Shown piece after piece: positions 6,790 to 58,921 of a stretch of 64,000 nt of DNA. Within the stretch, counting starts at the first letter, position 1. Every line of letters starts with the position of its first letter. The notes under the pieces were generated by a model, which worked only from the letters and a program-made list of their open reading frames with translations, was not told where the DNA came from and made no database searches. The stretch comes from Cyanidioschyzon merolae (taxonomy: Eukaryota), in assembly GCA_000091205.1 (NCBI GenBank), contig AP006494.2. One strand, given 5' to 3'. The position numbers and the translations under genes were made by a program.

Positions 6790-6845
6790 AAACGATAAAC
6801 GTTTCACGACCGTATCGTGCACACATACACCCATTCGCAGCCGCC
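6790..6845 (-). repeat. Copy D (partial) of the conserved Fanzor-unit 3' element
   Basis: Immediately follows the stop of ORF 6848-7360. gtttcacgaccgtatcgtgcacacatacac...gcagccgcc aligns with ggttccatgacagtatctacgtgcgctttacgtacactgcaccgccgc at 54665-54750. Confidence 0.4.
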
Positions 6846-6847
6846 TT

Positions 6848-7360: not shown

Positions 7361-8179
7361 ACGAAATCTGTCCCGGTATCAAGGTGAGTTGAATGCTTCA
7401 GCGATTCGCCCAGTGGAGCAAGCATTCGTATTCTCGACACTAGAAACTCCTTCGATGACGTTGAAACTCGCAGAGCTTACGTAGGAAACAAAAGCAGCTC
7501 TAGTCCTCGACAGATTCAGCAAAAGCTCGAACGCGAGTGGATTGGTAAAATACCGTGTTGTCTAATGGAAGTACGTCGCCAGACGTCAGGGAAAAGTCTT
7601 CTGTGATGCGACATAGTGGTTGGTGCTGGTATATGAGACTTCGGTACAGAGGAAACTGGAGCTGCCGAATGAATCCACTGCAGCTAGGAGAGCTGCTGAT
7701 GTCATCGTTCTCTTCGAATTTGATCGTACATAAAATTGGCTCTTTCACCTCGAGTATCCAGATACGCTCCGACCGTTTCATCCGAAGCAAGTCTCATCGA
7801 CTGAAGAAACAAATCGACGTCGGTCTATTTCATACCGATCGAGACGTTCCAGGAATTCTTTCGTTGCGATACGAGTAAAAGATGGCCGTGATTGAAACTG
7901 AACTCTACGTGCGATGGTGTTCCGGTTTTTTCCGGACCATAGGCACAAGCTGTAGAGAAACAGAGACCCACATGGCGTCTCCTGTTGTCGCTTTTGGTTT
8001 CCGTTAAATTAGATCAACGGGTCATTTTCAAACATTGAACGCAAGCAGTCTCTGGAACTATCGGTTACTGGCGCGGAGCGCAAATACTGCTTCTGTTCAG
8101 TGCTCCTCAACCATCTGCCTACTGTCGTGTGACTGACCTGAACGAGGGATGCAAACTTCGCAGCACTTTTCATGAAGGA

Positions 8180-16530: not shown

Positions 16531-16732
16531 CAGAACGTTTCCTGTGATCATGCATCCCAGAATGTACCATGAAGACTGGCATTCGGCAGAGCGTCCATCA
16601 TGTTGTACCCTACCTACAAGGTTCCATGACTCCGACATGCTCCCCGAAATACCAAGAGACTGCCGCTTGCGCTCAGCAGAACGTTTCCTGTGATCATGCA
16701 CCCCAGAATGTACCACGAATACTGGCATTCGT
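16531..16732 (+). repeat. 56-bp direct repeat (2 copies, ~93% identical, 145 bp apart) in the divergent DDX6/VPS13 intergenic region
   Basis: cagaacgtttcctgtgatcatgca[tc]cccagaatgtacca[tc]gaa[gt]actggcattcg occurs at 16531-16586 and 16676-16732. Confidence 0.7.
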
Positions 16733-16950
16733 GAACACTGAGCTGCATTGTCGCGCTTCCGCCAACGGTCGATGCGTACGAACGATACTGACGCGCGCAG
16801 CGCCGCCTCGGCGATGCCAACGATGCGCGCTGTTCTGGGCGGCGCGCGCCACCGGCGATCGCCACTCGTAACCAGATACGGCATACACGAACGCGACGAT
16901 TGAGGTGTGTTGGCTCAGAGGTGAGGCATACCACCGGGTTATAACGTTTG

Positions 16951-19280: not shown

Positions 19281-19316
<36 letters not shown>

Positions 19317-25300: not shown

Positions 25301-28300
25301 CTGTCGAGCCAGGGGCTATCGAGCATGCGACGCCACTTCAAACTCGACTCGCGTCTAGTATGTCGCATACGGAGGGCCGGGTATTGTCGGCACTAGCGCT
25401 GGAGTCGACACCAGGTCCTGCGGTTGGAAATGAGGCCGCATCGCAGCCGCTGACTGCGCTGAATGTTGCTGCTTCTGGCACTGGCCGGCATCCAGGGCGC
25501 AACGACGACGACGACGACGACGACGACGAACATGGATCGACACCTGGTACGAGCAGGCGATCCACAGAAGCAACCGAGAATCCCTCCAAGGTGCCAGCTT
25601 CGACGTTGCCAGAGGCGACGAATCTCGAAACGGCATCTGCATGGCATCGCTGGGTCAGTGGACGGACGCGTTCATTGCCTACCATATCCCCAGAGGTGAT
25701 CGAGGCCGCACTGCGTTCCGCCGAAGCACCCAGCGGCACGGATGCTGCTAGCACCTTGCAAGCGACTTGGCGACGTCGTGCTGGACGCATGCACCGACGA
25801 CTGGAGACGATAAGCGGCGCGATGCCTGCAGCAGCAGCAACAGCAACAACAACAACAACAACAACGACCACCACTGGTGCGACTTCAGCAATACACCCTG
25901 AATCGGCTACCAAGCATACAAGCAACACCACTGACAAGTCTTCGTCGACGACGAAGACAAAGACGCGGATCGAGGCCCGCTCGTCTGCCGAACGGCTTGG
26001 CGAGGCAGCGCAGGCGTCGAGCACGCCTCGTGCCGCTGCTGGTGCTACTTCATCATCAACATCAGCACCAGCAACCAGAGTGCGTTCGCTGCGGATTACC
26101 ATTCAGGTTGATACCCTGGTTTGTATGCTGCTACACGAGGACGCTTGGAGCCAGCCACCGAGTGCATCGATGAGGCCCGGGGGCCGCTCCTGGTATCAGG
26201 CAGTGATAGCGAATGAGGTCAACGCAAGCGAGTCGCCTATGGTCAGCTACCTACCCACGGTCGTGCTCTATGGCGCATTCTCGGTACAGAGTCGGGAGCC
26301 GGCAGTTAGCGATGCACAAGGCGCTCTCTGTATCGATATCTTCAATGACTATTTGGGAGCGTGGGAGCCTCTCGTGGAACACTGTGCTGGCTGTCTGCAA
26401 TGGAATGAGCAGGAGCTGCCGCTCACCGGGGAAGTGTCAGAGCTCGGCGCTGCAGTGCGCTCGACAGGTGCCAGCGCGGACACCGGCACTGCTGCACCAA
26501 GTGCCGGTCTGCGTCCTCGACATCGACTATGGCATCTGGTTGTCGCTGACGCCCTCGAGATGAATATCAGTGAGGCCTTTCTACCGGCGCTCGATAGACT
26601 GGCAAAGGCAGTGGAACAGATCGTACACGACTGGCGTGCATTGGCGACGCAACCGAAAGCAGGTCCCGAGACGCCAACCAGCACGGTGCACTCGCCATCG
26701 ATGGCACTGCTACCAGTATCCGAAGCAGCGCTGGTGACAAGGTGCGTATCCAGCGAGATGGATCATCAGGAAGCACCTGAAGACGTTGGAATAGCAGCAG
26801 CAGCAGCAACAACAACAACAACGTCAGCAGCAGCGCCAAGGAAAATCGATGTACAGGAAGCCGGTGAATACGCTGCAGCATCCGGAAGAAACAAAACATC
26901 ACGCGACAACGGCGATGCCCCTGACAGAACGGAAGCGGCTGCCGAATCCTCATCTCACAGCGTCTGGCTGCCGGAGACCAGGCAGCAGCCGAATGCCGGA
27001 CCTGGTGTGCGTCGTCACCCGCGTCCAACGTTGGCAGCCCTGGTGATTCACAACTGTACCGGTCTACCTTTGCTGATAGAATCGAAAGCGTTGCGAACAC
27101 GTAAGCTTGCACTGAGCTCTATGGCTGTCGAGGTGCGGCTCACCGATCTCTACACGGATACGAATCTCGAGTCGTCGGAGCACTTCCAGGCCTGGCGCTC
27201 GCATTTGACAAAAATGCTCGATACATTGCGCGCTTCCGCAGCAAAGAACGTTTTGTTTCCCGGCAGCGCCAGCTCTGACGAACTAGCAAAGAGCACCGCT
27301 TCGGGCGACGGAGCACGCGCAACACGAAAGCGTTCCCCCGACATGCGCGTGAACCGGAACGCCGCTCCCGAGCCGATGGGCACTGGCCTATTTCGACCGC
27401 TTGCTGCGGGTCTTGCGGATTGTGTACTGCGGATCGCTGGCTTTCATCCGGTTCGCGTGAACACTTGTCATTTCGGCACACAGACCTACACGCTGGAACC
27501 GGACACGAGTGCATCGGGCCTCGAGTTGACCGCTGCCTCCGCAGAGTGCTTGCGCTCATGTACCCTGATATGGGAACTTGGTGTCCTGAATGGAGCCATC
27601 ACGGGGGTGGCACGTTCCCTGCTTCGTTTCACGAACCAGCTTCAGGTCCCGCTACAGATTCGCTACGAAATGGCCACGCCAGCGGCAGCGCTTATCGATT
27701 GGTCGCGGAGCCTGCATCCGGGAGCAGTTGCGGATAGTCCACGGGTGGCGCTTTTGGCACCCGGCGAGTCGTGGTCACCACCGCTGCTGGCGCGCCTGGA
27801 TCGGCTGCAGGTGCGGCCCTGGTGTCGCCGGTGGTGCTTGCCGGTACCCGCGACGCAGTCGAGCGCTTCCCAGGGGGCAGCTGACGACCCCAGAATCGAG
27901 ACCAGTGGCCACCTGTCAGCTGATCAGTCGCTCGATACCTCCATCACAAGTTCCTTTGGTGACTCGGAAGCGACCTGGTCGGCACCGTTGCCAGACGTGA
28001 GCACGCTCCGGATGCTGGTTGCCGAGTCCTACCAGCGACGCAAGCGCATGCGTACCGTCGGTGCCGCTGCCTCAGCTTCGACCGCTGGAGGTGCGGCGGA
28101 AGTGCTCATGGCGCAGCAACGCTCGAGTTTGTTGACGTTACAGGGCGCGCGGCTCGGTTCACTGCCGTTTCATGTGGACTTGATTCCCCGTATCAGCTCG
28201 TATGCACGCTTCTCGCCAATGCAGCACGACTGGGTGGATTTGTGCTTTCGAGCGCCGCTGGTGCTTGCCAATCTGTTGCCAATAGCGGTCGTGATTCGGC

Positions 28301-30628
28301 TGCATCGTGCTGGAAGCAGTACACCACTGTGGACGAGCGGGATACTCGCGGCCGGTCAGTCCGCTGCCGTCCATATAACCCGTAGTCTGAACGGACTATT
28401 TTTCTCGGTAGCTCTGGTGCATCTCATCAACACGAATAGTGCCTTGGCATCTGATTTGGCCGTACAGCGGAATGCGCCCATTTCCCGAGAATGCGACGAC
28501 GCTCCGGACGAGACAGCGGACTCACGCTATTCCACGGACTCGGAGCGAGTCGACGCTGAATGCATCTGGTCGGAGCCTATACGTTTGCCACCGAAATGGC
28601 CCTGCGAGGGCTCTTTTCTCTGCCCGCGCGTGTTCGACTGGACCATGCTAACGTTCGAGGGTACCTGGGAGACACCAGCTCTGGATCCGCATGCGGTTAC
28701 GGTGCCGGTGGCGAGCCAGCGCCTCCAGCTCTCCGCGAGCTGCTGGTTACAAAATCGCTCTGACTGTGCGCTCTGCATTGATCCGGGGTTTGTCGGGGAT
28801 CGTCTGCCCACTAGAGGTCTCACTCAGCGGCGAAAAGCAAGCGCCCTGCGTCAGCACGCCCGGGAGCGCAGTTCTGGCGCCGACTCGATCATGTCCGCCA
28901 AGGCGAGCATCGACAGCGAATCCACAGCGGCAGCGTGCGCCCCGGACGAGCGCTTCATCCTCCTCAATGCCTGGATCGAAGGCCAGGTGCCGGAGCCGTA
29001 TCTTCCGCTCGCTGTGCAGAGCTTTCGTCTTGCCGTCATTGAGCAGCAGCTGGGAACTTGGTCAGATCCGATCTTCGTTCGAGACCTGGATCAGGTACAG
29101 GTGCTGAACCTGCCGGAACGAGTTCTCGTCCTGAGTAGCCGCCCGGTGAGTGATCCTTTTGGGAACAGCCTTGTTCTGAGCATTCATAATGTGGCGCGGA
29201 TTGTGAATCGCACGCCACTTCCCTTTGAATACGTCCAGACGCTGCAGCATTTGCACGTAGAGACGCTTCTGGAAGGTCGCCCGTCCGCCACCGTTGGCCA
29301 GGTACACTCGCTAGATCCTGGTGCAAGTGCCGCACTACACTGGGAACTGGCGGATATGGAGCGGCATGGCGTATTACGCATCCGACCCGCTGGCGATGCG
29401 CTGCCTGCAGTGGCGAAGGCTGGCACGCGAGTCAGCGCTGGTGACGCAGCTGGCGGCCTGCTCCAGCGGACAAGCGCGCGCGTGAAGGCGCACACGCCGA
29501 GCGCATCTGCCGCTGCCGACGCAGCAACCTGTTCACAGCAGCAGCAGCAGCAGCAGCGTCGACGTCGCCATTCTCCAGCAGCAGCGCGCGTCCCTGAGGA
29601 TGCCGACTCGCCAGCAGCGGCATCTGGACGAGCACCCTCGCCGTGGCTATGGAGCTGCGGGATTCCCATCGGCATGACAGGGCATTACGCACTGAAACTG
29701 TACCGTCCCGATACGCTGCACCAGTACATCGCGAAGCTGAGTTTGCAACCCAGTCCTGACGGTGTTTGGATGGTGATTTTGGATCCCGAGGATCCCGAGC
29801 ACCCGCCGATGCGTCTCCAGAATATCTGCACCCGCTACGCTGTTGCATACCGTCAACTGGACGCGAGTCGGCGCTTTTGGCTGCTGCGTCCTGGTTACGC
29901 AGCACGCTACGCCTGGGATAATCCCTTCACGTTTCCCAAGTCCCGTCGACTATTACTGGAAGTCGAAGAGACGCGATTCGCCTTGGCTCTAGATGGACTC
30001 GGGGAATGCGTCGCTGTCCTACCCCTTGGGCCGCACTGTCCGTCGTTGCAGGTTGCCATATCCTTGGATGGTCCGACCAAGGTCATTACACTGTACGATG
30101 ATCGCGAGATTTTTCATCTCTTTCGTCAAGGTATCGTAGCGGATGCACTTTTGGTAGCACGCGCAGCGGCCCAAGCGACTGGACGTGCACAAGCGGCAAC
30201 AGCGCCGGTACCGGTCGCGCTGTCGCACCGCCGCCCTTGGCTGATGCGGCAACAGAGGCGCAGCTCTTTGCGTTGGTTTCGCCGCTACGGCTTTGTGCGA
30301 CCCAGTTGGCCCGAAGAGAATGAGGTTGACTCAGATGCCTTCCAGCACTTGGATTTCTTCTTTGAGCTTGAGCGGATCGGGGTGTCGTTTCTGACCATGG
30401 AACCGGCCGAATTAGCGTATTTGACCTGTCATCGCTTACGTGGCGGCTATACTACGGATTACAAAGGATGTGCGCTGGAAGTCGGCATCGAACGCATCGA
30501 ATTGGATGATCAGCGCAGCAGCTGTGTACATCCCAAGGTTTTGCGTGTGCAGCCACAGCGCCTGAGACCCTCACATGCCGCTGAATCGACAACCAGCGCG
30601 AAGGACGATAGCGCAGCGGCATCAACGA

Positions 30629-30674
<46 letters not shown>

Positions 30675-31241
30675 GACAAGAACTGCAGTGCCTAGGGAAC
30701 CAGCAGACGCGCGTCCATCGCTCTCGCGTGGCCGCGTGTCTGCTGCAGAGGAAGCTCTCTACCCAGCGCTCTATCTATCCTTCGAGCTTGGAGCGCCCTA
30801 CAGCGGCGACGTATGGAATGTTCGCTTCGGTTATGTGGCGCTTCAGACCATCGAATTATGCCTCGAGGAGGGTTTCATTCGTGCAGCCTGGCCCTTTCTC
30901 CAGTTGCTTGTCGCCAATGACGTCGACGAGCCCGAGCACGCTGTCACTAGAGACATCTCGACGGTGCCGCCAGCGTCCGCATCCGAGCCCGGCCGTCAGA
31001 TCTATTTCGAATACCTGTTGGTGAACCCGCTGACGCTGCGTGTGAGCTTCTTCATCAGCCCTATCGCATCGCAATCTGCTGAACAAGACGTCCCTCCATA
31101 TGCACGCTCCGTGCCGAGTGTGCAGTTGACGCCCTTGAACGAAATCCATGGATCACGCTTCCGCGCCGGTAACGCAACGACAGGCGCTGGGCTGGAATTC
31201 GATACCCCTGACGCAAACTCTCCAAGCACGAGAGACGCAAC

Positions 31242-31292
<51 letters not shown>

Positions 31293-34200
31293 CGCACAAC
31301 CGGCCCCGTCACATCCGGCGAGCGATGGTGCATTGGTACTGGCACCTGAGCGAAGCTCCGTAGAGACGGCTCCTGCTGGAAACCGACAGGCGTCGCCAGA
31401 GCGTTCCAGACAGCACAGTCGTGCACTCGACCGAGGACGGGACGCCAGTGACACGTTTTCGGCATCTGCCTCGGCAGCGGTGCAGCACTCGCTGAGTCGT
31501 CGAATTGGCTCTGGAACAGGTGCGCTCGCTGGGGGCCATGTCTTGCACACAGGCTCGGAGCAGAGCGTTCGCCTGGGTGGCGGCGGAAATCGTAGCGTTC
31601 GCGGGTACCGCACCATTCTACGTCCATTACTTGCAGCACTGGGAACCGTCGAAGATGCATCGCTCAGTGCGCGTGCGCTCCTCCTGGAACATTATCTGGA
31701 TTCGGTGGGTCACTGGCTAGAGTTCATCCAGGAATTCTATCTGCTGCAGTTCAGGGCGTCGCAATTGCAACTGCTAGCATCCAGTGATCTGCTGGGCAAT
31801 CCGACGCGTTTGCTTGATTCGGTAGCAGAGGGAGTTAGCGAGATCTTCGAGACACCGCGCCAAGCAACCTCCAGTTACGACCTGTTGCTGCGCCTCAGTC
31901 GCGCGAACATGGGCCTCTTCACCAACTCGGTGCGGGGTCTCTTTCGGACTGTGTCGGCGGTCTCTGCGTCGTTGTCACGCGGCCTCACTGCCATGACCGG
32001 TGACTCGCAATATATTCAGAAACGCGAGGAACGCCGACGGGATGCGCCGAGTTCTGTAGCCGGTGGTCTGCGCAAAGGACTCGTCTCTTTCGGCTATGAA
32101 ATGCGAACCGCGGTAACCGGGCTGGTACGCGAGCCGTACCGTGGCGCACAGGCGGGCTCGGTTTCGCGAGGCATTCGCCGCGCTCTCGTGCAGGCAGTAA
32201 TCCGCCCTGCGAATGGTTTCCTGGACCTCATCATGCATCCAGCAGCGAGCCTTGGTGCTCGTCCACATTACCAGCGTCTGCCGGCCGGGAGACGGGTCCG
32301 GCCGCCGCGCTGCTTTGGACCTGGCCTTCGACTTGTGCCCTACTGCTTCGAGGATGCACAAGGCAACGATCTATTGTGGCGTCTGTTGGTGCGCAAAGCG
32401 ACCTCATCGGCGAGCGACCCGTACCCGAACCTCGAGTTCTACGTGGGTATGGTCCGCGTAAGCGCGTCAGCGATCTACGAAGCAGCACCTCCGCAGAGCT
32501 CGACTGCAGCAGCCACTCGCGCCTTTGCACTGGAGCGGCTCCCATTGGGGCCGCGTTACGGTGTGGTGCTCGTATCCACCGAGTCCATTTACGGTCTCGT
32601 GGTTCATTCCGAGCGTCCGAGCAAATTTCAGTCCATCTGGCAGGTTCCCTGGTCGGAAGTGGTGCAGGTTGTCGAGAGCCTGCCCGCGAGTCCCGCCGTG
32701 GTCAAGGTACTTCATTCAGCAGCACCATCATACCATCGTTTTTGGCAGCGCATTCGCAATCGTTATGCGATGGAGCGGGTTCAGCGGCTCAGCGAAGAGC
32801 TCGAAAAACGCCAGGAACGCGTCAAAGCTACAAAAGCTGCCGCGACGCCAGCCACTCCACGGACAGCGGCTCTGGCGCGCAGTCAGCGCAGTGCAGCGGT
32901 GCAGCAACTGCGCATCGAGTGCGCGTCCATTGCTCAGCGGGATGAATTGCTTCAGATGTTGCGGCAAGTGTTCTGTACGGTTGCCCGTGGCCGACTGTTG
33001 ACGAGTCAGGCGTCAATGGCGCCACCGTCGCCCGGTTGCACGTTCCGTCTGGACGCTGCCGGAAAGCGCGAAACCGAATCGCGTCCTTCTACGGACGCTC
33101 TATCGATAGCAACCGTAGCTGATCAGCATGAACGGAGCACGCTCTACTCCAGCGGATCGGCAAAGCCTCGTGCCGCGAATACGAATGTATCCAATTTTAA
33201 GAGCGGGCTGCCGCCGGTGGCCAGTACATCGGCACCGCCACTGGTGCGCTCAGGCCGGGTAGAGTCAGAGCCAGATGCACCGGAACCGGGCTCGATTTCT
33301 GCCGGCATTGCCGACGTTATGAGCTCGGAAAACGCCCACGGACTGTCCGCGAGCAGTGGCAGGTCGGATGGTGAGAGCCTCAGTCCAGTGGTGCGCGTGT
33401 CAGCGTGCGCTACTGCTTCCGTTGCGGGGCCAGAGCGGGGCGTTGCAGCCGAATGCTCCGCACAGCCGCCAATTGAGACACCAACCTGGTACGCGCTGGA
33501 CAGCTCCCAGCCGCCGCTTCCATTAGCGGAATCGACTGGCGGGACGGGGGTCGCTTCTGGTGTTGTTGGAGTCCCCGTCGCGAACACAATGGGATGCGTG
33601 ATTGAGAACCGGTCCGACACAACCTTTGTTCTGGTTTGGCAGTATCTTGATGGAGGATTCTTCCTGCAGGAAGCGCCGCCAACGATCTATGCGCAATCAC
33701 GAGCGAAATTTGTGATCTACCGCGCGGCACAACCGCCCAAAAGACGGTCACCGTTGCGGCGGCAGCGGCAACGTCAGCTGGAGCAACATCTGCCAGCAAC
33801 GTCGTTCGAGTCCGCTGCCATTGCCACTGGAGCGTTCGCAGCGCCCGGTGCAGTGCGCGGTTCCAGCGACGTAGCGCCGGACATGCCTCGAAGCTCAGAT
33901 ACGGCGCTCGTTCCTGAGCAGCATTTGCGTGCTCGTCAGGTGCAGCGGCAGCGGCGTCGCGACCAGCTGGGCCTGCGAAAGCTCTCTGGCATTATCCTGT
34001 ACGCATTGGCAGATCCCGATGACCAGCAAGCGATCTACGATGAGCGTCGCTGGATAACGCTCGAGTTTGGCGTTTCGCGTCGTGCGGTGCCGCGCGCGCA
34101 TGTGCGCTGTCCACCGCCCATGGTCTCGACGCTGCTATTCCAGCGAGCGGCGAGTGCGCTGCAAATGCTGTGCGTGCTTGAGGCAATGGAGACGCCAACG

Positions 34201-35013
34201 AAAACGGATCGCTCGACAGCGTCATTGCCGACGTCAGGGGCGCTGAGCTCATCAGCTGCTGACGCCGCAGGACGTGCTTCAACGAGCTCGGAACGGAGTC
34301 TCCGTTGGCGAAAACGCAGCCCTGCGGCTCGGAGAGAGAGGCTGCAAAATGCCCGAATAGTTGCATCGGAGGCGGCGGTTCAGAGCCATCACGACGCTGC
34401 TTCAGTCTTGTCGTCGACTTCGTCTGATTCCGACGACATTGATGTGGAGAGGAGTGTCCTCGAGAGCTATGAACCCAGCACGATTATGGGGCCGCCCGAG
34501 TCGCACAGCATGGCCACTCGAGTGGCCGCGTCTGACGACCCGGTGTTGCCCGCGCCTGCAAGTCGCGAGCCCGAGGCGTCAAGGCCGCGTTCGCGCAGCC
34601 ACTCGCGCCCCGGAGAGCGCCTCCGATCATGGCTGAGACGGCGCGGCGCTGCTGGAGCCTCAGCCACTGTCCCTAGCCGGTTGGATAAGCTCGCAAATAC
34701 CCAATCGGCTCGTGAGGGGACTGCGACCGCCGGCCTTTCGCTGACGGCGTCACAGGCGTTGACCACAGCAGCATCCCCGGACTGCACGGCACTGAATTAC
34801 GAAAAGGGTGTCGGCGAGCGTGAGCCAGACCTCCAGCGACAGTGTGACCGCGCACTACAAGCGACAGCAGCTGTAGAAGAAACAGAAGCAGATGAAGCAA
34901 ACGCGCGGGCTCCGGAGGGTTGCACCATCCGCGTTGCTGCCGAGGTTCACAGTGACTCTGAGGACGGCTATTTAGACGCACCACTGGCACTCGAAGATGC
35001 CGACCCCATGTAA
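16951..35013 (+). CDS. VPS13: VPS13-family bridge-like lipid-transfer protein, 6021 aa, single exon
   Basis: The N-terminus is a clear Chorein-N domain (MLAHFVAELLSGTLGQYVKIDERQISVGIWSGQLELHELQLVPEAV...VEVPWKTLSWSQPLRIQIEDVCVQLAALPP). The ORF is continuous. The track start at 16948 is TTG; ATG at 16951. It is interrupted by many in-frame low-complexity runs (polyA, polyQ, polyT, polyD, polyS). Confidence 0.85.
31243..31290 (+). repeat. (CAG)16 encoding polyQ inside VPS13; representative of several in-frame trinucleotide microsatellites
   Basis: Others in the same CDS: (GCC)n 19281-19316 (polyA), (TCG)n 20477-20497 and 23506-23528 (polyS), (CAG)n 22117-22143, 29534-29557 and 30632-30673, (GAC)n 25504-25529 (polyD), (GCA/ACA)n 25831-25870 and 26790-26823. 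All preserve the reading frame. Confidence 0.9.
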
Positions 35014-50894: not shown

Positions 50895-53800
50895 TCACAA
50901 AACGCCAAACATTTTCTTCAGTTTCAAGACGAGCTGCCAGTCATCTTTCGTAAGCTCGTCTCTGTAGAGCTCTTTCAGCAAATCAATCGCTTTCCGTGTG
51001 ATTCGGCTATATAGTTTGAAGGTGTGATCGAATTGTCGGCCGTACATCACATGGCTTGTTTGGCGACTGCTTACTTTGATGGCCACCAGATCTCCCCGGC
51101 GAGCTTGCGTAACGGATTTCTTGTTGGATTCGATGCTCAGCACCCGTCCAATGTCAACCATGCGACTCGTTTCCTCGTGCACAGCAACGAGACTCGAGCC
51201 ACAGCGAAGGATGCCCTCGTCGATGCGCACACCCAGAATCAGTGGATCCCGTTTGTTGAATATGCTGTCTGGCAGGATCGTTGCACAAACGGGAAAGACA
51301 ATATCCACCTCTGCATCTCGTTTCTTCCGCTCTTTCACTTGCTCCATATACTTTCGGAAGTGATCGAACAAGTGATAGATGATGTCCGCGGTGAAAATCT
51401 GGACTCCGAGGTTCTCCGCCTCCTCGCGCGCTTCCCGTTCCACTTTCACATCAAAAGCTAAAATAACGGCATACTCAGGTCTGTGTTCCAGCATGGTTGA
51501 GGCTCGAACTACATCACGTTTGTGGACTGGACCGATATTCACACCGCTGACAGGAATCTTTGCATCCTTGCGGAGAAACTCCAGTAGTGCCTCTAGCGAA
51601 CCGAGCGTGCTCGCCTGCACATACACGCCCACGCCCGAGGTGTCCACGGCAGCAAGGGTTGTGCTCAAATCAGCCATTACTTCTTCTTTGAGATACTCAA
51701 TTTCATCAGGGTTCCGAGCCACAAACATCTGCGTCCCAGCGACGGCTTTCTCGAGGCCCTCGGCACTGATCTTGACGCCCTGTGCTGCCTCAATGCGCTT
51801 ATGGTGGATATATTGCCCCTTGACTCGCAATTCCTTCATTGGATGCGGCGTCAGTAAAGCTCGAATGGTTGTGACGATGGGTCCATCCAGCCCGCACACC
51901 ACAATCGTGTCGGCCTCGTGGAGAGCGCCCCCAGTGAGCACCACATCGATTGTCGTTCCGAGGCCGTCAATGACTTTCACCTCCAGAACCGTGCAGTACA
52001 CAAAGTCTATGAACTTGAGACGCTCTACAAGCAGCCGCTGTGGAAGCTGAACAAGCAGCATCAGCAAATCGGGAATGCCCTCGCCGCTGATTGCCGAAGT
52101 GGGCACCAGGGATAAATTCCGCCGATAGTCAGTGTTCTCCCAGTATAGCTCCGCATTAAAGCCGATTTCCGCGAAGGCGGTCTTCGTTTCCCTTACCCGG
52201 CGCTCAAACTCAGCAGCAGTCGACGGATTCTCTTCCAAAGCCTGCCGAATGGGGGCCATCGGGCAAGGCTTCCAACCGTATAAGCGATCCACCTTGTTCA
52301 ATGCCACGATAAAAGGAGTCTTCCGCATCTTCAAGAGCTCAATCGATTCAAGCGTCTGCTGTTCGAGCCCATGCATGATGTCCACAACGAGGATGGCGAT
52401 ATCGCACAACGACGAGCCCCGAGAGCGCAAATTCGTGAACGACTCATGCCCGGGGGTGTCGATGATCAGCAACGACGGAATTCGGTACGTCAGCTCGGGG
52501 TTCACTTTCGCTGCTTCCTGACGAACCGCTTCAATAGGGAAATAGGTAGCACCAATTTGCTGCGTAATGCCGCCAGCCTCACCCTCTTGAACATGGGTGT
52601 GCCTTATTTTGTCCAGTAACTTGGTTTTCCCAGTATCCACGTGTCCCAGGATGCAAATAATTGGTGAGCGCAGTCGATCAGCGGACGCAGCTGTCCGTGC
52701 AGCAGCCTCATCAGCAAGGCGTTGACGCACAGCGAGCTGTCGGCGCTCTTCTGCGCTAAGGGCAGGGCCTGAGGGCTGCACCCGAGCTGGCTCACTGAAG
52801 CGCACCTTGCCCGAAATGGCTTCTTTCTGCTCAGCGTCGTCGTCGACACCGCTTTCTGAAGCAAGCGATAGCACGTGCTCGTCTTCTCCAGAACCCGAAT
52901 CACTGAATGCATCCGTCAAGTGCGCTTCGAAGCTATCAGGCACAGCCGCCACTCGGGCATCGCTGGCAGCTGCGACTGTTTTAGTCGAGTCGGAGGCCGT
53001 TGCAGCAACCTGCGCTGCCGCCTTGACACCTGTAGAGGTCGTCTGCTCCGAGTCCGTGCCAGTCGGGTCCTTGGGCCTGGGTTTCTTCTTGCGGTCGTCA
53101 TAGACTCTTTTTGATCGTTTGGTCGCTTCTTGCGGGAGCGTCGCTGCAGCGATTGCACCGCTTGCCATGCTCAGTTGAATGAATGCTTCTACGCGTTGCT
53201 TTCGTTGACGTTCACTCTTCGACAAGAGCTTACCCTCGCGACGGAGCTGCTCGCGACGGGCTCGTTCGGCCTCCTTCTTCTGACGTCGTTCCTCTTCTCG
53301 TTGTCGCGCCTCTTCCTCTTCCCGTTGCTGACGCTCGCGCTCGCGGGCCAGGCGGTCCTCCTCTTCTTGACGGCGCCGTTCCTCTTCCTCTGCTCGTCGC
53401 TGCTGCTCTGCCAAGATACGACGAACGATCGCCTTACTCGCATTGGAAGGAGCACTGGATGGCAGCTCACTGGATTCGGCTACTGCCTCAGCTTTTTTTG
53501 AAGCTTCCTTCTGCTTCTTCTTCAGCCGCTTCTTTTGTGCAGCCGTCAGTTGCTGACTCTGTGCCTCTCCGACATGATTCCGGTCCTCTATCTGCGCTTC
53601 CGCAATACGCTCCTCAGCTGCTGATTGATCCGACAAAGACTGAGTTTGATCTACAACTGTGCCAGCTTGCGACGTATGCCGATTTTTCGGATCCGAGACG
53701 GGAGACGCCCCGGGTGATTCTTGCGCAGCAGGTCTCTCTTGCACCCGAGGTGCATCGCCACCTGCAGATACCACCTGCTCCCCGTGCTGGGCTTCATCAG

Positions 53801-54692
53801 CCTGGCGACTGGCAAGGTCTGACGCATCGTGCCTTTCTGCAGCTTCTGCTGCAAGCAGCTCTTCGAACGATGCGTCTTGATCGTCGATTTCCTTCTGAGT
53901 AGCTTTTTTGGCCTTCCGTTTCTGTTTCTTGCTCGATTTCGTCTTTGTGGATTCCTCCTCAACTGCTTCGAGCTCCGCGAGAATGGCCTCAATTTCGGCA
54001 TCTTCCTCGTGCGACACCCCCGTATTCCCTTTCTTAGCGGAGGAGGAACGTTTGGTTGTCGTGTTGCGGAGAGCATCTGTGGGTGTCCAGGTACTGGGCA
54101 CCGCACCGGCCCGCGCATAATTCTTCTCTTTCGAAGTTGTCCCTGAAATCTCTGTTCCCGAACTAGTGCCGATCGCGTTACGAAAATCTTGCGGAACCGC
54201 AAGTGCCCCCGAGGCAGGGCTTCGTGAACCGTTCAACGAGGTATTATCACCGGTCCTACCACTTCGCCTGTGACTCGACCGGGTCGAATCGCTGCTCTGG
54301 GCGTCATCAGCGTCGGAGTTACCCTCGTCCGAGAGGCCAAGTGCTGAGAAAGCTGCAAATATGGAATTTCCTGGAGCGCTTTCGCCTATCCCAAGGTCTT
54401 CGTCGACGTCGGCGGGTCTCGGAAGCTCCCGCGAGACCCCGCGTCGACCGCGTTCCGGACGGTGAACTGTCTCCGTCTTAAGGTCTGACAAGCTTTCCTT
54501 ATTTCGTTTCCCCCTAGAGGCGTCAAGAGAAAGAGTAGTGACTCCCTCGTTCCCTAAAGATTGTCGGTGATCAGTTACGTTAAAAGTGGAGTCCTCTCCG
54601 TCTAGTGCTGGTAAAGCGGGCGCTCCAGACTTCTTCTTCTTCGCCTTTTTACCGCCCTTGACGGCCACAGGCATCTCTATATCCGGTTCCAT
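50895..54692 (-). CDS. EIF5B: Translation initiation factor eIF5B (IF2 homologue)
   Basis: K/E-rich N-terminal region, then a GTPase domain (IICILGHVDTGKTKLLDKIRHT, DTPGHESF, NKVDR) and the C-terminal beta-barrel domains. 1265 aa. ATG confirmed at 54690-54692. Confidence 0.9.
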   Translation of the reverse strand: MEPDIEMPVAVKGGKKAKKKKSGAPALPALDGEDSTFNVTDHRQSLGNEGVTTLSLDASRGKRNKESLSDLKTETVHRPERGRRGVSRELPRPADVDEDLGIGESAPGNSIFAAFSALGLSDEGNSDADDAQSSDSTRSSHRRSGRTGDNTSLNGSRSPASGALAVPQDFRNAIGTSSGTEISGTTSKEKNYARAGAVPSTWTPTDALRNTTTKRSSSAKKGNTGVSHEEDAEIEAILAELEAVEEESTKTKSSKKQKRKAKKATQKEIDDQDASFEELLAAEAAERHDASDLASRQADEAQHGEQVVSAGGDAPRVQERPAAQESPGASPVSDPKNRHTSQAGTVVDQTQSLSDQSAAEERIAEAQIEDRNHVGEAQSQQLTAAQKKRLKKKQKEASKKAEAVAESSELPSSAPSNASKAIVRRILAEQQRRAEEEERRRQEEEDRLARERERQQREEEEARQREEERRQKKEAERARREQLRREGKLLSKSERQRKQRVEAFIQLSMASGAIAAATLPQEATKRSKRVYDDRKKKPRPKDPTGTDSEQTTSTGVKAAAQVAATASDSTKTVAAASDARVAAVPDSFEAHLTDAFSDSGSGEDEHVLSLASESGVDDDAEQKEAISGKVRFSEPARVQPSGPALSAEERRQLAVRQRLADEAAARTAASADRLRSPIICILGHVDTGKTKLLDKIRHTHVQEGEAGGITQQIGATYFPIEAVRQEAAKVNPELTYRIPSLLIIDTPGHESFTNLRSRGSSLCDIAILVVDIMHGLEQQTLESIELLKMRKTPFIVALNKVDRLYGWKPCPMAPIRQALEENPSTAAEFERRVRETKTAFAEIGFNAELYWENTDYRRNLSLVPTSAISGEGIPDLLMLLVQLPQRLLVERLKFIDFVYCTVLEVKVIDGLGTTIDVVLTGGALHEADTIVVCGLDGPIVTTIRALLTPHPMKELRVKGQYIHHKRIEAAQGVKISAEGLEKAVAGTQMFVARNPDEIEYLKEEVMADLSTTLAAVDTSGVGVYVQASTLGSLEALLEFLRKDAKIPVSGVNIGPVHKRDVVRASTMLEHRPEYAVILAFDVKVEREAREEAENLGVQIFTADIIYHLFDHFRKYMEQVKERKKRDAEVDIVFPVCATILPDSIFNKRDPLILGVRIDEGILRCGSSLVAVHEETSRMVDIGRVLSIESNKKSVTQARRGDLVAIKVSSRQTSHVMYGRQFDHTFKLYSRITRKAIDLLKELYRDELTKDDWQLVLKLKKMFGVL

Positions 54693-54750
54693 GACAGTAT
54701 CTACGTGCGCTTTACGTACACTGCACCGCCGCGGACACCATCAACGCCGT
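54665..54750 (-). repeat. Copy C of the conserved Fanzor-unit 3' element; overlaps the eIF5B start codon and 5' region
   Basis: ctctatatccggttccatgacagtatctacgtgcgctttacgtacactgcaccgccgcggacaccatcaa shares the blocks tatatcc, ggt.cat, gtat.tgc and tacactgc with copies A and B. It lies directly 3' of the RuvC-III ORF (stop at 54752). Confidence 0.5.
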
Positions 54751-55724
54751 TCTAGGTCGAGCGACGCCAACCGTGCACAGTAGTGGCGAGAAAGCCGTCC
54801 CAGACGGGGCGTCGCCAACCGACGTGCAGACGCCCCCCAGTATTTTTGGACCGGCCACCTACGGCTGCTTCCAACTTCTTCTCATATAGTTCCACTTTGA
54901 GAGGTTGTCCAATAAAGTTCGCTCTTGGCAAGTACGGAGGTCTGTTCTCCAGCATCGCACATCTCCTTATATTGATAGCGGCGTTTAAGTCACGGTTCAC
55001 AACTCCATCCGTTTCTTGCCATCATTAGTTGTGCTAATCAATGCGAGTAGTCCACGAACTTTCGCCCTCCTTTCCATTTGCTCCTCCGTCAGCGGTCCGT
55101 ACTTTTTTATATCCTCAGGGCTCCTCTGGCACTTTTCCATCTCCACTCCCTGAAGTGTACGACCCAGCTCATGGTGTGTATAGGACGTTCGGAACTCATC
55201 TACAGGTATCGTAACGAAACGCCGTGCACACTCTTTGTACGTTCTTGTCGTTGGAGCTGGCGTTGTTCCTTTTTGGGTCTTCCAGCGCCCTGCTCCATAA
55301 GCCACTACGAGCCTCTGATTTTCATCCTCCTTGAGGGCACTCAACTGATTGAAAAAATTCGCGAACGCGCGCTGCCTCCCACCGTGTAGATTCATTCGCA
55401 GACGAGCCCACCGGGGCTTTGTATACTCCTCCCACAGAGCATCCCAATGCGCAACACGAACTTCCATGAATTTCCGAAAAACTTCAAAGTCCGCTCCGCG
55501 GCTCGTCACCTCGCTCATAGCTTCCAGGTGATCCTTCATTCCTGAATTCCAAGTCTCGATTTTCTTCCTCGCATTCATTATACCAGATTCTCGATAGCAT
55601 CTCGCTCTCGAGAACCTCAAAAGACGCATGTCTTTCTGACGTACGTTACCATCAGTACCATCTTCCGCAAGCTTGGGTATTGCGATGGTGATGATATTCG
55701 TGTTCCCAGGGTCCGCGCCAACGA

Positions 55725-56013
55725 CAAAGTCGTCATCGTGCACTTTCTGCATCGCAGGATCCGCCTCCTTCTTTTCTTCGTGCTTCACCGCGCCAACGAC
55801 AAGGTCGTCATCCTCCACCTCCTGAATCGCAGGTTCGGCCTCATTCTCATCTTCATGGTTCGCCGCGCCAACGACAAGGTCGTTATCCTCCACCTCCTGC
55901 GTCGCAGGACCCGCCTCCTTCTCATCTTCATCCTTCGTCACGTCAACGACAAAGTCGTTATCCTCCACCTCCTGCGTCGCAAGATCCGCCTCCTTCTCAT
56001 CTTCATGGTTCGC
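55725..56013 (-). repeat. 78-bp tandem repeat (~3.7 copies) inside the Fanzor-like ORF, encoding acidic 26-aa repeats ([26 protein letters not shown])
   Basis: Each repeat ends in DD[FL]VVG[AD], i.e. a reiteration of the segment immediately N-terminal to the RuvC-I motif. It shows on the + strand as ORF 55738-56259 with repeated KVVILHLL. Confidence 0.8.
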
Positions 56014-56149
56014 CGAGGGCGGAACTGGCCGATCTTTCTTCAACCGCCGATAGTGTACACACAAGGCTACTCCATCGATTTCGATCATCCCAGTGAACAA
56101 CTTTTGCTTGTTCACTCTCAGACGTTTGAAATTGGAGACGTTCTTCAAG

Positions 56150-56260
56150 TACGTCTCCCGGTTTTCGCCGGTGAAGTTCTCCCTGCTGACACTGAACTCC
56201 GGACTGATGTCCCTCATGATGCCGTAGAGGACGCCGGAGTCGATAGTCACAAAACGTGAC
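56150..56260 (-). repeat. Internal copy of the unit tail plus 3' element at the junction of two head-to-tail Fanzor-like units
   Basis: + strand tcccggttttcgccggtgaagttctccctgctgacactgaactccgg aligns with copy C (tatccggttccatgacagtatctacgtgcgctttacgtacactgcaccgccgcgg). The adjacent coding [13 protein letters not shown] aligns with FDSVPVSNIKAHY next to copy A. Confidence 0.4.
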
Positions 56261-56345
56261 TTGATGTTGCACATTGGAACCACGTCGAAGCGCTTCCCCA
56301 TTAGGAAAGCCTTCCGTCTCTCCCACTCTTCATTTTTTTTCTCAC

Positions 56346-57148
56346 TCACCTTCGTTTCTGCCTTGCGTTCGAGCTCTCGGTCCAGAAACACGAAATATCG
56401 CAGGATGAGGCGATAGTATCTTTCCTTATCTTTTTCAACGCTGATATCTTGTCTGTTGGATACGCCAGCCCCAGTACCGCACGATGCTCTTTTATAGCCG
56501 CACGGATCGCAGAAGCTGCATCCGTGTTCTCGTTTGGCGCCTTCTTGTCGACAAATTCGACCTCATCTTCATGCTTGCGATCGCTCGTGATGCCGTTGAT
56601 CATCGCCCATTTTCCATTGCGAGAGATGTCCGGAGACAACGCAAACACGGCGCGTACCATGAAACGTTCGAAGTTCTCTGTCAAATGGTTCTTCAGGTTC
56701 GTGGGGTACTTCATCGCCCCGTACGTGTAAATATCCCGGTCACCCTTGTATCGAGTACCATTGAAGCTGTAAAGGGGATATTTTTCGTGGAGGGCGCGCA
56801 CCCGCTCATTTTCCCTCCGCACTTCCCCTGTGCCGAGCATCAGCTGACGAATAAAGGTTTGTCGAAAAACTTGTCTGGAATCTCGACCGTTTCCATGTTC
56901 GCGACGTCTTCGTACATCTCCCTTGCTAAATGCATCAGTCCTGACGACGCCTTTATAATATTCTTGGAGTATGACGCAACACGTTTTTCGATAGCGTCTC
57001 GCAACTTTTCCCTGTACGGATCCTTGATATGTCCAAGAAGAAAGGTTTTCACCACCACCTCGTCGCACAGTTGTCTCTCGTGCCGCCTTCGACGTAGGAG
57101 CTCCGCCTTTCGGTCCTTCTTCTCTTCCTTTTCTTCTGGACTCGGCAC
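56346..57148 (-). pseudogene. Upstream partial Fanzor-like unit (degenerate RuvC-III-like ENTDAASAIRAAI and tail AYPTDKISALKKIRKD), split into two overlapping ORFs
   Basis: ORFs 56840-57148 and 56346-57068 on the minus strand run straight into the 54997-56391 ORF. Weak similarity to NRDLNAAINIRR / YLPRANFIGQPLKVELYEKK. Confidence 0.3.
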
Positions 57149-57189
57149 TATTTTTTTCTGGCAGCCGGCGAACCTGGGCCTCCAGGATC

Positions 57190-57400
57190 GTGCAATTGCT
57201 TTTTCATAGCGTTCCTTTTTTCGTTTTTTTATTTTTGTATTTCTTGAACGCTCTTTAAACCCTTCTGTTATATACTGCGAAAAAACATTTGACTAGACTT
57301 GTTAAAAGTTTGAAACAAAAACGAACTGAAAACTATATTTTTGTTCGACTCCAACGCGAATACAACTTTTACAGCTGAACAACACACCAGAGATCAGGAT
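57190..57400. other. AT-rich island (~35% GC) in otherwise GC-rich DNA, at the 5' boundary of the Fanzor-like array
   Basis: ttttttcgtttttttatttttgtatttcttgaacgctctttaaaccc...gaaacaaaaacgaactgaaaactatatttttgttcg. Composition departs sharply from the flanks. Confidence 0.6.
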
Positions 57401-58921
57401 CGCGTTTCCCTTCAGCGGCGGCACGCGCGTCGTGTCGTATGCCTGCCTGATCTCCCAGGAACGCTCACTTAGCGCACTGCGTGCACCGCGCGAGACGCCT
57501 CACCGATCGATGAAGGACACGTGTCCGACACCCCGCCTTGGCACGTGCGTGTTCGCATCGCGCTGGAGCGAAAATCAGGTGTCGTAGCTCGGAAACTCAC
57601 GTAGAGTAATCTCTTGCTATAGGCTCTGTCGCTGGTGCGCGTCGCGGTGCCGCCCTTGACATACAAGGTAATATTGGGGCCTGGCACGATACCTCGCGAT
57701 GATTCCAGCTGGCACGCTCCGCCATGATCGATCATCTGGAGCACGGCGAGGCGCCCGGGCGAACGCAGGCGCAACCCAGCAAGAGGAAGACGTCATGGTA
57801 GAGCATTGTTGAATCTAACGAAGAATCCCCGAGTGTCGGATGGTTACCAAGTGCTCAGGACCGCGAGTGTGATTCCTAATGGTGTAGGATTTTGGAATCT
57901 AACCTCTGATCCCCAATGATGTGATGGTTATCGGCATCCGGGAAGCAAGCCTACATGGCGCACCGAATCCTCCCAGTCCTCTTTACCGTTATCCAAGCAT
58001 TGATTCGGGGATAGCGGTCCGTCCACACGATCCTCCGTTCCAGCGACAGCATGGCGTCGCAGTGTCGCTGCGGATTCCCAGGCCGAACGTTGGCGAACGC
58101 AGCGGCTGGTCCGAGACTGCGATTCGCCTCTTGTAGTGAACACTCTCGAACTGGGCCAACCGAGCCCTACGAACGGATACGTTGATTCGCCAGCGCACGA
58201 CGGCGTCAAGGCGCTCGCACGCTCCATGACACGCGCTTTGTCCATGGACTGTATGTACGGACAAAATTGTACCCGCAGGTTCAGCACCGCGCAGTCCGAC
58301 TGTCGATTCCAGTAGGGATGCTGCACCAGGTTCTCCGTCTGCGAGCAGTGATTCGCATGCGAACAATAGACACACTGCTCTGGTCGAAGGTTGGGCGCAG
58401 TAGCAGGCGAATGGCGTGCGGCTGTGTATCGATTCCGCGCGGAGCGCTGCTGCAGGAACATTTGCCGGGTTCAGCGCGCTGGTCAGTACTCTATGCAAAG
58501 TTTTAGATGCTGTGCCTGCAGGAAGCAACTTGGCACTTTGTAGCCGACCGCAACGTTCAAGCTATTTTTCATCCTTGCAGAGCAGCAGAAACTGAGGCTT
58601 GATCGCAGCGATCAAGCCCCAGTTTCGCCATGTTCGGTTGGTAGGAATGCATCGCTTGCGCGGACGGAAGCTGAGATCTGCGATCCTTTTCCCATCGCCT
58701 TCTTCTTTGCATGGTACCCTCGGTGTGTCCTGCGCAGCAGTGACACTCGGTGGAGGTCAAGTGCCCAAATGTATCCGCAATACTTTCTCTACCAACGGCC
58801 GTTCTCTGGCACATGAGCGCATGTTTCACTGCACGGTACGTGCCCTGGACGGGTAGAGAAGGTTTCCCTACATGCTTTACTCCGTTTCCGCGCTCGGTGC
58901 TGTACCCCAGGATCACAAGCT

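Follow-up and report, generated by a model that had tools for sequence, protein, structure and literature searches.

The minus-strand segment from 57452 to 54745 of a 64,000-nucleotide stretch of Cyanidioschyzon merolae 10D nuclear DNA (the whole stretch is called the window here) is a single copy of CMe-1A, a C. merolae transposon published by Bao and Jurka (2013, Mobile DNA 4:12, PMC3627910). The element is already known and belongs to the Fanzor1 family; what remains of it in the window is an ordinary transposon fossil rather than a new gene. We conclude with high confidence that the window copy is an old, fixed, inactivated CMe-1A copy, i.e., a Fanzor1 pseudogene. The first-pass annotation had also called this a nonfunctional Fanzor-like copy; that call holds on account of four deletions, though the reasons partly differ from those given then.

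The window copy is 86.5% identical to the 3,169-bp CMe-1A consensus over 2,477 aligned nucleotides (consensus positions 671 to 3169; blastn and global alignment). It is 5′ truncated and lacks the first ~670 bp, a TE-N2_CMe-like module. The consensus, which is of Repbase type, represents the same element in the same organism. The window copy also matches the published CMe-1 protein, with which it has motifs such as VDEFRTSYTHHELGC and NRDFNAAINIRRC in common; relative to the consensus, it adds the four frame-breaking deletions and a Cys-to-Arg change and has four acidic repeat units instead of one. Some 150 genomic copies with ~80% identity to the consensus and no terminal inverted repeats (TIRs) have been reported (Bao and Jurka 2013, PMC3627910). 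We found 360 related stretches in metagenome contigs and retrieved 80 of them as paralogs for comparison. CMe-1A is thus a multicopy transposable element, as expected of Fanzor1. A DNA self-search revealed no second close copy within the window. Similarity to the 80 paralogs begins at ~57450 to 57480 in most and at ~57709 in a subset, and it ends at 54731 to 54743. The many copies without the 5′ module and the GT-rich tails prompted us to consider LINE-like retroposition, which was rejected because the 5′ ends are not scattered but cluster at a single position, ~57450 to 57480. Proteins flanking the copy match C. merolae 10D entries exactly, and the start codon of eIF5B, which has the same orientation, follows 52 nt after it. 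Features of the copy are listed in Table 1.

Table 1. Coordinates of the CMe-1A copy and its features in the window
Feature	Coordinates	Strand	Basis
CMe-1A copy	54745..57452	-	alignment to the published consensus (blastn, global)
Fanzor1 ORF start, reads MKKQLHDPGGPGSPAARKK, followed by premature TAG (57150-57148)	57148..57207	-	direct sequence reading
Frame piece 2: N-terminal basic region and first helices; ends at 1-nt deletion at ~56858	56840..57148	-	tblastn
Frame piece 3: REC-like helices; ends at 1-nt deletion at ~56435 in A6 run	56430..56867	-	tblastn
Frame piece 4: 464-aa ORF with WED/REC part, acidic repeats, RuvC-I, RuvC-II Gly, alternative Glu, and degenerate zinc-ribbon region	54997..56391	-	
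Tandem repeat, 75 bp x 4.0, 25-aa acidic unit	55713..56015	-	Tandem Repeats Finder
D-E-F-R-T-S-Y-T-H-H-E-L-G-R: alternative RuvC-II Glu, then zinc-ribbon remnant	55159..55200	-	paralog alignment
1-nt deletion cutting off RuvC-III; window GAGTT-GTGAAC, consensus GAGTT[C/T]GTGAAC	54998..55003	-	paralogs and consensus
Frame piece 5: RuvC-III and C-terminal tail, 82-aa ORF	54752..55000	-	
Candidate omega-RNA (guide RNA scaffold) region, overlaps ORF 3′ end	54742..54960	-	inferred from paralog folding

The gene had been taken to span 54752 to 56391 and to be broken by a single frameshift. In fact, it starts at an ATG at 57207-57205 and now consists of five frame pieces instead of two. These are separated by four frame-breaking deletions recognized from the paralogs and the published consensus: one of 7 nt at ~57155 and three of 1 nt at ~56858, ~56435, and ~55000. 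The 7-nt deletion corresponds to consensus positions 958 to 964 and causes the stop after 19 codons; the published CMe-1 protein begins with MEKEVEDPGGPVSPAAGKKRKTVPSPEE. When the intact paralog P0003, encoded on L007, was used as a tblastn query, its match to the window copy was split over frames -1/-3/-2/-1, with residues 1 to 97 in frame -1 (piece 2) and residues 95 to 240 in frame -3 (piece 3). The G deleted at ~56858 is retained by 86% of 73 paralogs and by the ortholog L038. At ~56435, the run is A6 in 92% of 78 paralogs, and A5 or A7 arose independently in others. The base lost at ~55000 is published consensus position 2909. Comparison with other genomic copies, which the first-pass annotation had suggested, showed a continuous frame there in 97% of 74 paralogs as well as in the consensus. 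With the deletions repaired, the frame is open end to end, with no internal stop over ~800 codons. In place of the family's stop (TAG in GTCTAGGGCG), the window copy has TGG.

As it stands, the window copy has no uninterrupted ATG-to-stop frame, owing to the stop after 19 codons and three more frameshifts. The 464-aa and 82-aa ORFs, both on the minus strand, do occupy different frames, as previously described, with RuvC-I (GADPGNTN) in the former and RuvC-III (NRDLNAAINI) in the latter; their 4-nt overlap is also real but reads GTGA (a GTG prokaryote-style "start" plus a TGA stop), not ATGA. RuvC-III is out of frame with RuvC-I/II because the three single-base deletions split the remainder of the gene into four frames. 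The ~55000 deletion is common to independently assembled orthologous loci (L001 to L006 and L038) in at least seven metagenome assemblies with 98.4 to 99.7% identity. The ~56858 deletion is absent from L038, the most divergent ortholog, which indicates stepwise decay. The frame breaks, together with the insertion itself, are not peculiar to strain 10D but common to related environmental strains.

Assignment of the family to Fanzor1 is based on a profile match and on fold, the latter from a model of P0003 and not of the window's broken ORF. With a profile built only from 20 close copies (A1), no relative turned up in the PDB and the AF2 model had a pLDDT of just 31.7; the PDB search and AF2 worked only after distant relatives were added. 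The resulting 63-sequence profile (A2) matched PDB Fanzor1 chains (9cf0, E = 3.2e-20; 8gkh, E = 2.3e-12; 9cer, E = 1.4e-5), with the DPG, DEFRT, and NRD..NAA motifs aligned. The AF2 model of P0003 (pLDDT, 81.5; pTM, 0.80) retrieved Fanzor1 structures as all of its top seven Foldseek PDB hits (E = 2.8e-17 to 4.8e-14; probability, 1.00; target-normalized TM, 0.51 to 0.73). Pfam scans of the window ORFs and intact paralogs gave nothing significant; the only match was PF07282 on NRD..NAA (E = 0.47), and a weak precomputed PF26935 DUF8286 label was not reproduced.

The catalytic residues follow the Fanzor1 pattern. RuvC-I carries the DPG motif described for Fanzor1 by Yoon et al. (2023), with its Asp codon at 55713-55711; in the 63-sequence clade alignment, D484 and G486 are present in 63/63 and P485 in 59/63. 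The canonical RuvC-II Glu site holds Gly (VVAYGAG; G623 is invariant). Profile alignment, which had been proposed as the way to find the RuvC-II glutamate, placed it in VDEFRTS (codon 55197-55195; E656 in 63/63 relatives); VDEFRTSYT-H aligns to DEFRTSSFC of PpFz1 (HMM alignment), the relocated position typical of Fanzor1. The RuvC-III Asp codon is at 54991-54989 (D725 in 62/63 sequences). In intact paralogs such as P0003, RuvC-III is in the same polypeptide as RuvC-I/II, unlike in the window copy. Across the RuvC half of the family, third codon positions are two to three times more diverged than first and second positions, so the family protein was under purifying selection.

The peptide TSYTHHELG(R), at 55188-55159, does occupy the place of the zinc ribbon, as reported earlier, but it is no sign of decay: the family consensus is TSYTHHELGC, and the sole copy-specific change in it is CGT (Arg) at 55161-55159 in place of the family Cys. 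In 61 paralog proteins, the region reads VDEFRTSYTHHELGC, and the CMe-1 family consensus is HHELGC...EKC...LLALV. The first CxxC of PpFz1 falls opposite H..L (HMM alignment). A C4 zinc ribbon (CxxC...CxxC) is absent from all CMe-1 copies and from the wider algal clade; the consensus copy with intact zinc-finger cysteines that the first-pass annotation had envisaged does not occur in the CMe-1 family. At the homologous ribbon positions, Cys is found in 7/63, 0/63, and 43/63 sequences of the clade; the CMe-1 residues there are H, L, and L. These alignments argue that the missing cysteines are an inherited family character, not damage to the window copy. Since loss of the ribbon is a lineage trait, it weakens an assignment by strict motif criteria but leaves the homology unaffected.

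A similar conclusion applies to the acidic repeat before RuvC-I, which had also been read as a mark of decay. The tandem array is real, but the unit first given as 78 bp and 26 aa in 3.7 copies was sized by Tandem Repeats Finder at 75 bp (25 aa) in 4.0 copies (85% matches; score, 424). The units follow the pattern ..HE[DE].KEA.PA.QEV.D[ND]D[FL]VV[GD][AV]; the last enters the beta-strand with the RuvC-I Asp. The array directly precedes RuvC-I, as had been noted, and the unit endings, earlier given as DDFVVG[AD], read ND/DD-[FL]VV[GD][AV]. Among paralogs, the array has 1 to 7 units, its length always being a multiple of 75 bp, and in the AF2 model of P0003 the corresponding residues (373 to 469) have pLDDT values of <50 and are predicted to be disordered. 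The array is a length-polymorphic family character and not decay of the window copy.

Paralog folding suggests a putative omega-RNA at the 3′ end of CMe-1A. Upon folding, most of the 34 distinct paralogs show an 8- to 12-bp terminal hairpin, in two sequence classes; in the window copy, the hairpin (~54766-54745) is weakened (-10.2 kcal/mol; z = -0.6). Helices besides this hairpin are conserved too. Hand-drawn helices were paired in 83.8% of cells versus 32 to 57% with partners slid. Covariation was modest (16 double-change cells versus 9.5 expected; 7/500 shuffles reached the observed number), and for this reason the omega-RNA stays a proposal. RNAalifold returned only sparse long-range structure for the 3′ 220 nt, and Rfam had no family match for the candidate region.

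Could the gene nonetheless be functional, such that a full protein is made and the break at 54998-55000 reflects either an error in sequencing or assembly or programmed ribosomal frameshifting, as the first-pass annotation allowed? The ~800 open codons obtained upon repair and the retention of all three catalytic residues fit this reading, but it requires four separate frame-breaking deletions to be explained, one of them with a stop 19 codons past the ATG. Paralogs and consensus keep the ~55000 base, the independently assembled orthologs share its loss, and three more deletions lie upstream; both error and programmed frameshifting are thereby argued against. The published consensus and 86 to 97% of paralogs run through each deletion site without a break, so there is no conserved recoding signal. 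A programmed -1 frameshift at the A-run at ~56435 was rejected because A5, A6, and A7 all occur among paralogs, most of which are in frame; such +1 and -1 variants are typical of mutational slippage. A functional gene is accordingly extremely improbable. We likewise give almost no credence to expression of the 464-aa ORF alone as a truncated, nuclease-dead Fanzor fragment (REC/WED and RuvC-I/II, lacking RuvC-III) that binds RNA or DNA. This is the longest open frame, with 464 codons without a stop and an internal ATG (M31), but it sits 0.8 kb downstream of the element ATG, behind several out-of-frame ATGs, and there is no sign of copy-specific selection on it. Its 5′ end is not conserved, because an additional G at ~56342 in L001 to L006 and L038 shortens the ORF to 449 aa and changes its start.

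The copy might instead be dead as a gene but co-opted, either as eIF5B promoter or 5′-UTR sequence or as a source of omega-RNA in trans for intact Fanzor1 copies. The insertion beside eIF5B is kept in every orthologous strain assembly seen, and hairpin potential persists at the 3′ end. Retention across 0.3 to 1.6% divergence is, however, expected of any fixed neutral insertion, and the terminal hairpin is weaker than in most paralogs, so that we consider co-option unlikely. An inactivated, fixed pseudogene remains the reading we prefer.

The single gene of CMe-1A encodes a Fanzor1 protein, Fanzor1 being a eukaryotic class of TnpB/Cas12-like, omega-RNA-guided RuvC endonucleases. In intact members, the product would have ~730 to 800 aa. 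Its catalytic set would be the DPG RuvC-I Asp, the relocated RuvC-II Glu (VDEFRTS), and the RuvC-III Asp (NRDFNAAINI). By analogy with characterized Fanzor1 enzymes, the protein would bind RNA from the element's 3′ end and cut matching DNA. The window copy, with a stop after 19 codons and the remainder in four frames, cannot make such a protein.

SpuFz1 (8GKH), PpFz1 (9CF0), and GtFz1 (9CER) have the fold of CMe-1 (Foldseek E down to 2.8e-17, P0003 model), together with DPG at RuvC-I, Gly at canonical RuvC-II, RD..NAA at RuvC-III, and an alternative Glu six residues ahead of the zinc-ribbon position, at only ~12 to 15% sequence identity. Unlike them, CMe-1 has His/Leu/Leu at the homologous positions in place of a CxxC...CxxC ribbon, a ~50-residue insert between the Glu and RuvC-III, and the variable disordered acidic repeat. 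Those enzymes are structurally and biochemically characterized nucleases; the CMe-1 proteins are putative nucleases. Prokaryotic TnpB (IS200/IS605, IS607) and Cas12f have in common with CMe-1 the RuvC D-E-D core and, putatively, the logic of an element-end guide RNA, and Pfam PF07282 (Cas12f1-like TNB/OrfB_Zn_ribbon) matches weakly (E = 0.002 to 0.5). In TnpB, RuvC-I reads D-hydrophobic-G and the canonical Glu precedes the zinc finger by ~50 residues; at these sites, CMe-1 has DPG and Gly. CMe-1 also differs in its relocated glutamate, the lack of a TnpA partner, and its being a eukaryotic nuclear element. Cas12 structures matched the P0003 model only at E ≥ 1.5e-3. Green-algal Fanzor1-like proteins, such as those of Tetrabaena socialis (PNH08370.1) and Haematococcus lacustris (KAJ9522957.1), fall into one clade with CMe-1; the CMe-1 profile recovered them at E values of 1e-46 to 1e-64, and they likewise have the N-terminal architecture and no C4 ribbon. 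They are 24 to 39% identical to CMe-1; most retain the "LLWC" Cys lost in CMe-1, and a 25-aa repeat array is absent from the members read.

In genome annotation, the segment 54745-57452 is best masked as a remnant of the CMe-1A (Fanzor1) transposon, and the 464-aa and 82-aa ORFs should be left out of the gene calls. The CMe-1 family makes clear that neither missing zinc-ribbon cysteines nor a longer acidic linker is in itself evidence of decay in a Fanzor gene. The algal clade around CMe-1 comprises 1,433 representatives (50% identity clustering; E ≤ 1e-3). Because the invariant D-E-D is under purifying selection, intact members could be active without a zinc ribbon. We tentatively raise the possibility, which we hold to be somewhat short of even, that the CMe-1 family and this large clade are zinc-ribbon-less Fanzor1 proteins, with the acidic array in CMe-1, whose intact members may be active RNA-guided nucleases. 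Even if so, the window copy would still be a pseudogene; a zinc-ribbon-less Fanzor1 from a thermoacidophilic alga could be tested with one of a small number of intact paralogs, e.g., P0003 on L007.

The eIF5B-adjacent element at 54745-57452 is what remains of a published Fanzor1 transposon, a fixed and frameshifted copy that is ordinary and non-functional; the first-pass annotation had correctly recognized it as Fanzor-like and as non-functional. Three large window ORFs, one of them the eIF5B gene, match C. merolae strain 10D proteins exactly, so the window is nuclear DNA of C. merolae. Since the DNA is nuclear and C. merolae is an intron-poor red alga, prokaryote-style ORF calls (GTG starts, stop/start overlaps) are biologically meaningless here. 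The two ORFs originally described, with RuvC-I and RuvC-III in different frames, are both present, but the 4 nt in which they overlap read GTGA, not ATGA.

The family was already described by Bao and Jurka (2013; PMC3627910) as CMe-1A, encoding the protein CMe-1. About 150 C. merolae copies share ~80% identity with a ~3.2-kb consensus and lack TIRs, the first 635 bp (5′) of that consensus are a separate element, TE-N2_CMe, and intact ORFs persist in a few copies (PMC3627910). The published consensus from position 671 to its end aligns to window 57452-54745 with 86.5% identity, and the published protein has the same VDEFRTSYTHHELGCTLQRVEMEKC...KRMEFVNRDFNAAINIRRC. Since the alignment begins at position 671, the window copy is without the TE-N2-like 5′ module; in most fetched paralogs, similarity to the window likewise begins near 57450-57480. 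A stretch resembling this module occurs elsewhere in the window, just upstream of a 6021-aa ORF (16948-35013). Two further diverged Fanzor1-like fragments at 6248-7378 (minus strand) are in the wrong order for one gene and are thus a rearranged or composite remnant.

Features of the window and lesions of the CMe-1A copy relative to the published 734-aa ORF
Feature	Window position	Strand	Detail
Fanzor1-like fragment	6428-6775	minus	clade HMM positions 389-488, E=5e-16
Fanzor1-like fragment	6851-7378	minus	clade HMM positions 564-611, E=5e-11; ~76% identical to CMe-1A consensus 2863-3019
TE-N2_CMe-like stretch	16531-16630	plus	100 bp, 77% identical to CMe-1A consensus 7-104
eIF5B gene	50895-54692	minus	BAM80756.1, record of 859,119 bp
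82-aa ORF	54752-55000	minus	contains NRDLNAAINI (RuvC-III)
464-aa ORF	54997-56391	minus	contains GADPGNTN (RuvC-I)
Fanzor1 ORF start (ATG)	57207-57205	minus	
7-nt deletion	~57155	minus	creates TAG 57150-57148 after 19 codons
1-nt deletion	~56858	minus	base kept in 86% of 73 paralogs
1-nt deletion in A6 run	~56435	minus	base kept in 92% of 78 paralogs
1-nt deletion	~55000	minus	base kept in 97% of 74 paralogs
In-frame +213 nt	repeat region	minus	three additional 75-bp units less 12 nt

With close-copy sequences, a Pfam search and a profile search of the PDB found nothing. An exhaustive HMM search defined a clade of 1433 representatives at E<=1e-3 (259 at E<=1e-30), which takes in green-algal proteins of Tetrabaena and Haematococcus. 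A 63-sequence profile of this clade matched PpFz1 (PDB 9cf0; E 3.2e-20), SpuFz1 (8gkh; E 2.3e-12), and GtFz1 (9cer; E 1.4e-5) in the PDB, and the motifs DPG, DEFRT, and NRD..NAA lined up with these solved Fanzor1 chains. The same alignment gave an AlphaFold2 model of P0003, an intact metagenomic paralog, with pLDDT 81.5 and pTM 0.80. Its best seven Foldseek matches in the PDB were all Fanzor1 proteins (E 2.8e-17 to 4.8e-14), while Cas12 proteins followed only at E>=1.5e-3. Two signatures set Fanzors apart from most TnpBs in the literature, a RuvC-I DPG and a relocated RuvC-II glutamate, and both were found. Glycine (G623) occupies the canonical RuvC-II site and the relocated glutamate (E656) lies six residues before the zinc-ribbon position; both residues are invariant (63/63 sequences). 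In the window, profile alignment located this glutamate as the E of VDEFRTS (codon 55197-55195), which is intact.

Hot-spring metagenomes contain hundreds of relatives of the 464-aa ORF. P0003 (752 aa), the longest, is unbroken at the window's frame break, reading ...KRMEFVNRDFNAAINIR..., and aligned to the window by tblastn in four pieces (frames -1, -3, -2, -1) covering 57148-54908. We fetched and aligned 80 paralogous loci, derived a majority consensus, and checked the window against both this and the published consensus. The single frameshift first reported before RuvC-III was confirmed at ~55000, but the gene is larger and carries four frame-breaking deletions. Repairing the single-base deletions left the frame open end to end, so the damage amounts to a few small deletions and is not extensive decay.

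That the frameshift is a sequencing error is contradicted by the orthologous locus, which carries the ~55000 deletion in independent assemblies from metagenomes. Six of these (L001-L006, from several samples) are 99.3 to 99.7% identical to the window and differ by one indel only, an extra G at ~56342; every deletion in the part each contig covers is common to both. A seventh, L038 (98.4% identical), has the ~56435 and ~55000 deletions in common with the window, retains G at ~56858, and bears a deletion of its own at ~56772. Since the ~55000 deletion is common to the orthologs and other lesions differ, the frameshift is old and later lesions were added lineage by lineage, the pattern expected of a neutral pseudogene. 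Programmed frameshifting fared no better: a recoding signal at the A run was rejected, because A5, A6, and A7 alleles among paralogs mark a slippage hotspot with no conserved recoding signal.

The A6 run itself (TTGAAAAAAGA, ~56430-56440) is an indel hotspot hit repeatedly, with A5 or A7 in independent paralogs, so many copies lose frame at one and the same codon. The extra G at ~56342 (GTGAGTGAGGAAAAAAA) is present in all seven environmental orthologs and absent from 10D; because the paralog majority also lacks it, it is an additional frameshift gained in the environmental lineage. Differences from the window are strongly clustered in L038 (42/50 listed differences inside the element fall in 56416-57237), and L003 has 8 in 80 bp (56464-56541), which suggests either that another copy converted these segments or that the metagenome assembly is chimeric across repeats.

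Only 52 nt separate the element's 3′ end from the start codon of eIF5B (ATG 54692-54690), which lies on the same strand, an arrangement kept in all orthologous assemblies; the promoter or 5′ UTR of eIF5B may thus sit inside or immediately after the CMe-1A copy. Past the published end (...GGCG), most paralogous loci carry a tail that is GT-rich and variable, TT(T/G)(TTG)n..GGTG, of ~10 to 20 nt followed by unrelated flank (window equivalent, 54735-54744), so the true terminus or a target-site motif may extend beyond the published consensus. By homology, an intact CMe-1 protein would bind RNA from the element's 3′ end and cut complementary DNA. The last ~220 nt (54960-54742) are conserved and, in most of 34 distinct paralogs, end in an 8- to 12-bp hairpin of two sequence classes (GCGUCGUUCGA...UCGAACGGCGU and ACGUUUUU...AAAGACGU), with modest statistical support for covariation; the window's hairpin is weakened. 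No Rfam family matched this candidate omega-RNA region.

In the RuvC half, divergence from consensus at third codon positions is 2- to 3-fold that at first and second ones, with ratios of ~1.5 mid-protein and ~1.0 over the N-terminal ~160 codons. This excess shows that the family diversified with its protein under purifying selection, in agreement with the long-lasting coding capacity remarked on by Bao and Jurka (PMC3627910). Most present copies are broken; among fetched loci, a full-length protein with all three motifs was found only at the L007/L009 locus. P0003, the one intact paralog, comes from this locus; its 3′ end (L007 8204-8260) reads ...ENFIG* through a CAA-to-TAA change that removes a ~45-aa basic tail (GQPLKVELYEKK...RRFV) found in the published consensus. 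The tail, which overlaps the putative omega-RNA, may be dispensable for the protein.

The tandem repeat at 55713-56015, first given a 78-bp (26-aa) unit, has a measured period of 75 bp (25 aa; 4.0 copies, 85% matches, score 424). Units do duplicate the lead-in to RuvC-I, as proposed: each ends in (N/D)D(F/L)VV(G/D)(A/V), and the last continues into ...GADPG. Slippage, previously read as a sign of decay, did make the array, but spacing between an 11-residue motif and DPGNTN changes by 75-bp steps among paralogs, with 1, 2, 3, 4, 5, 6, and 7 units at 4, 26, 20, 18 (including the window), 9, 3, and 2 loci, respectively; the published consensus has one. The array is thus a polymorphic family feature and does not mark this copy as dead. 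In the P0003 model it is disordered (residues 373-469), flanked by a WED-like strand on one side and by the first strand of RuvC on the other.

The zinc-finger cysteines are indeed missing, but this is family-wide and not damage to this copy. All 61 paralog proteins covering the region read ...TSYTHHELGC...EKC...RGLLALVSTT..., and none has a CxxC...CxxC ribbon; the only copy-specific change there is Cys to Arg in HHELGC (CGT, 55161-55159). When PpFz1 is aligned by HMM, its first CxxC pairs with H and L of CMe-1 and its later Cys with L; of the 63 clade sequences, 7, 0, and 43 have Cys at the three ligand positions that can be aligned. Judged from these alignments, the absence is an old lineage trait, found alongside an invariant triad of RuvC-I Asp, RuvC-II Glu, and RuvC-III Asp. 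That the zinc ribbon is absent across the clade and that the acidic array varies is of mild interest, but these are properties of the family and not of this locus.
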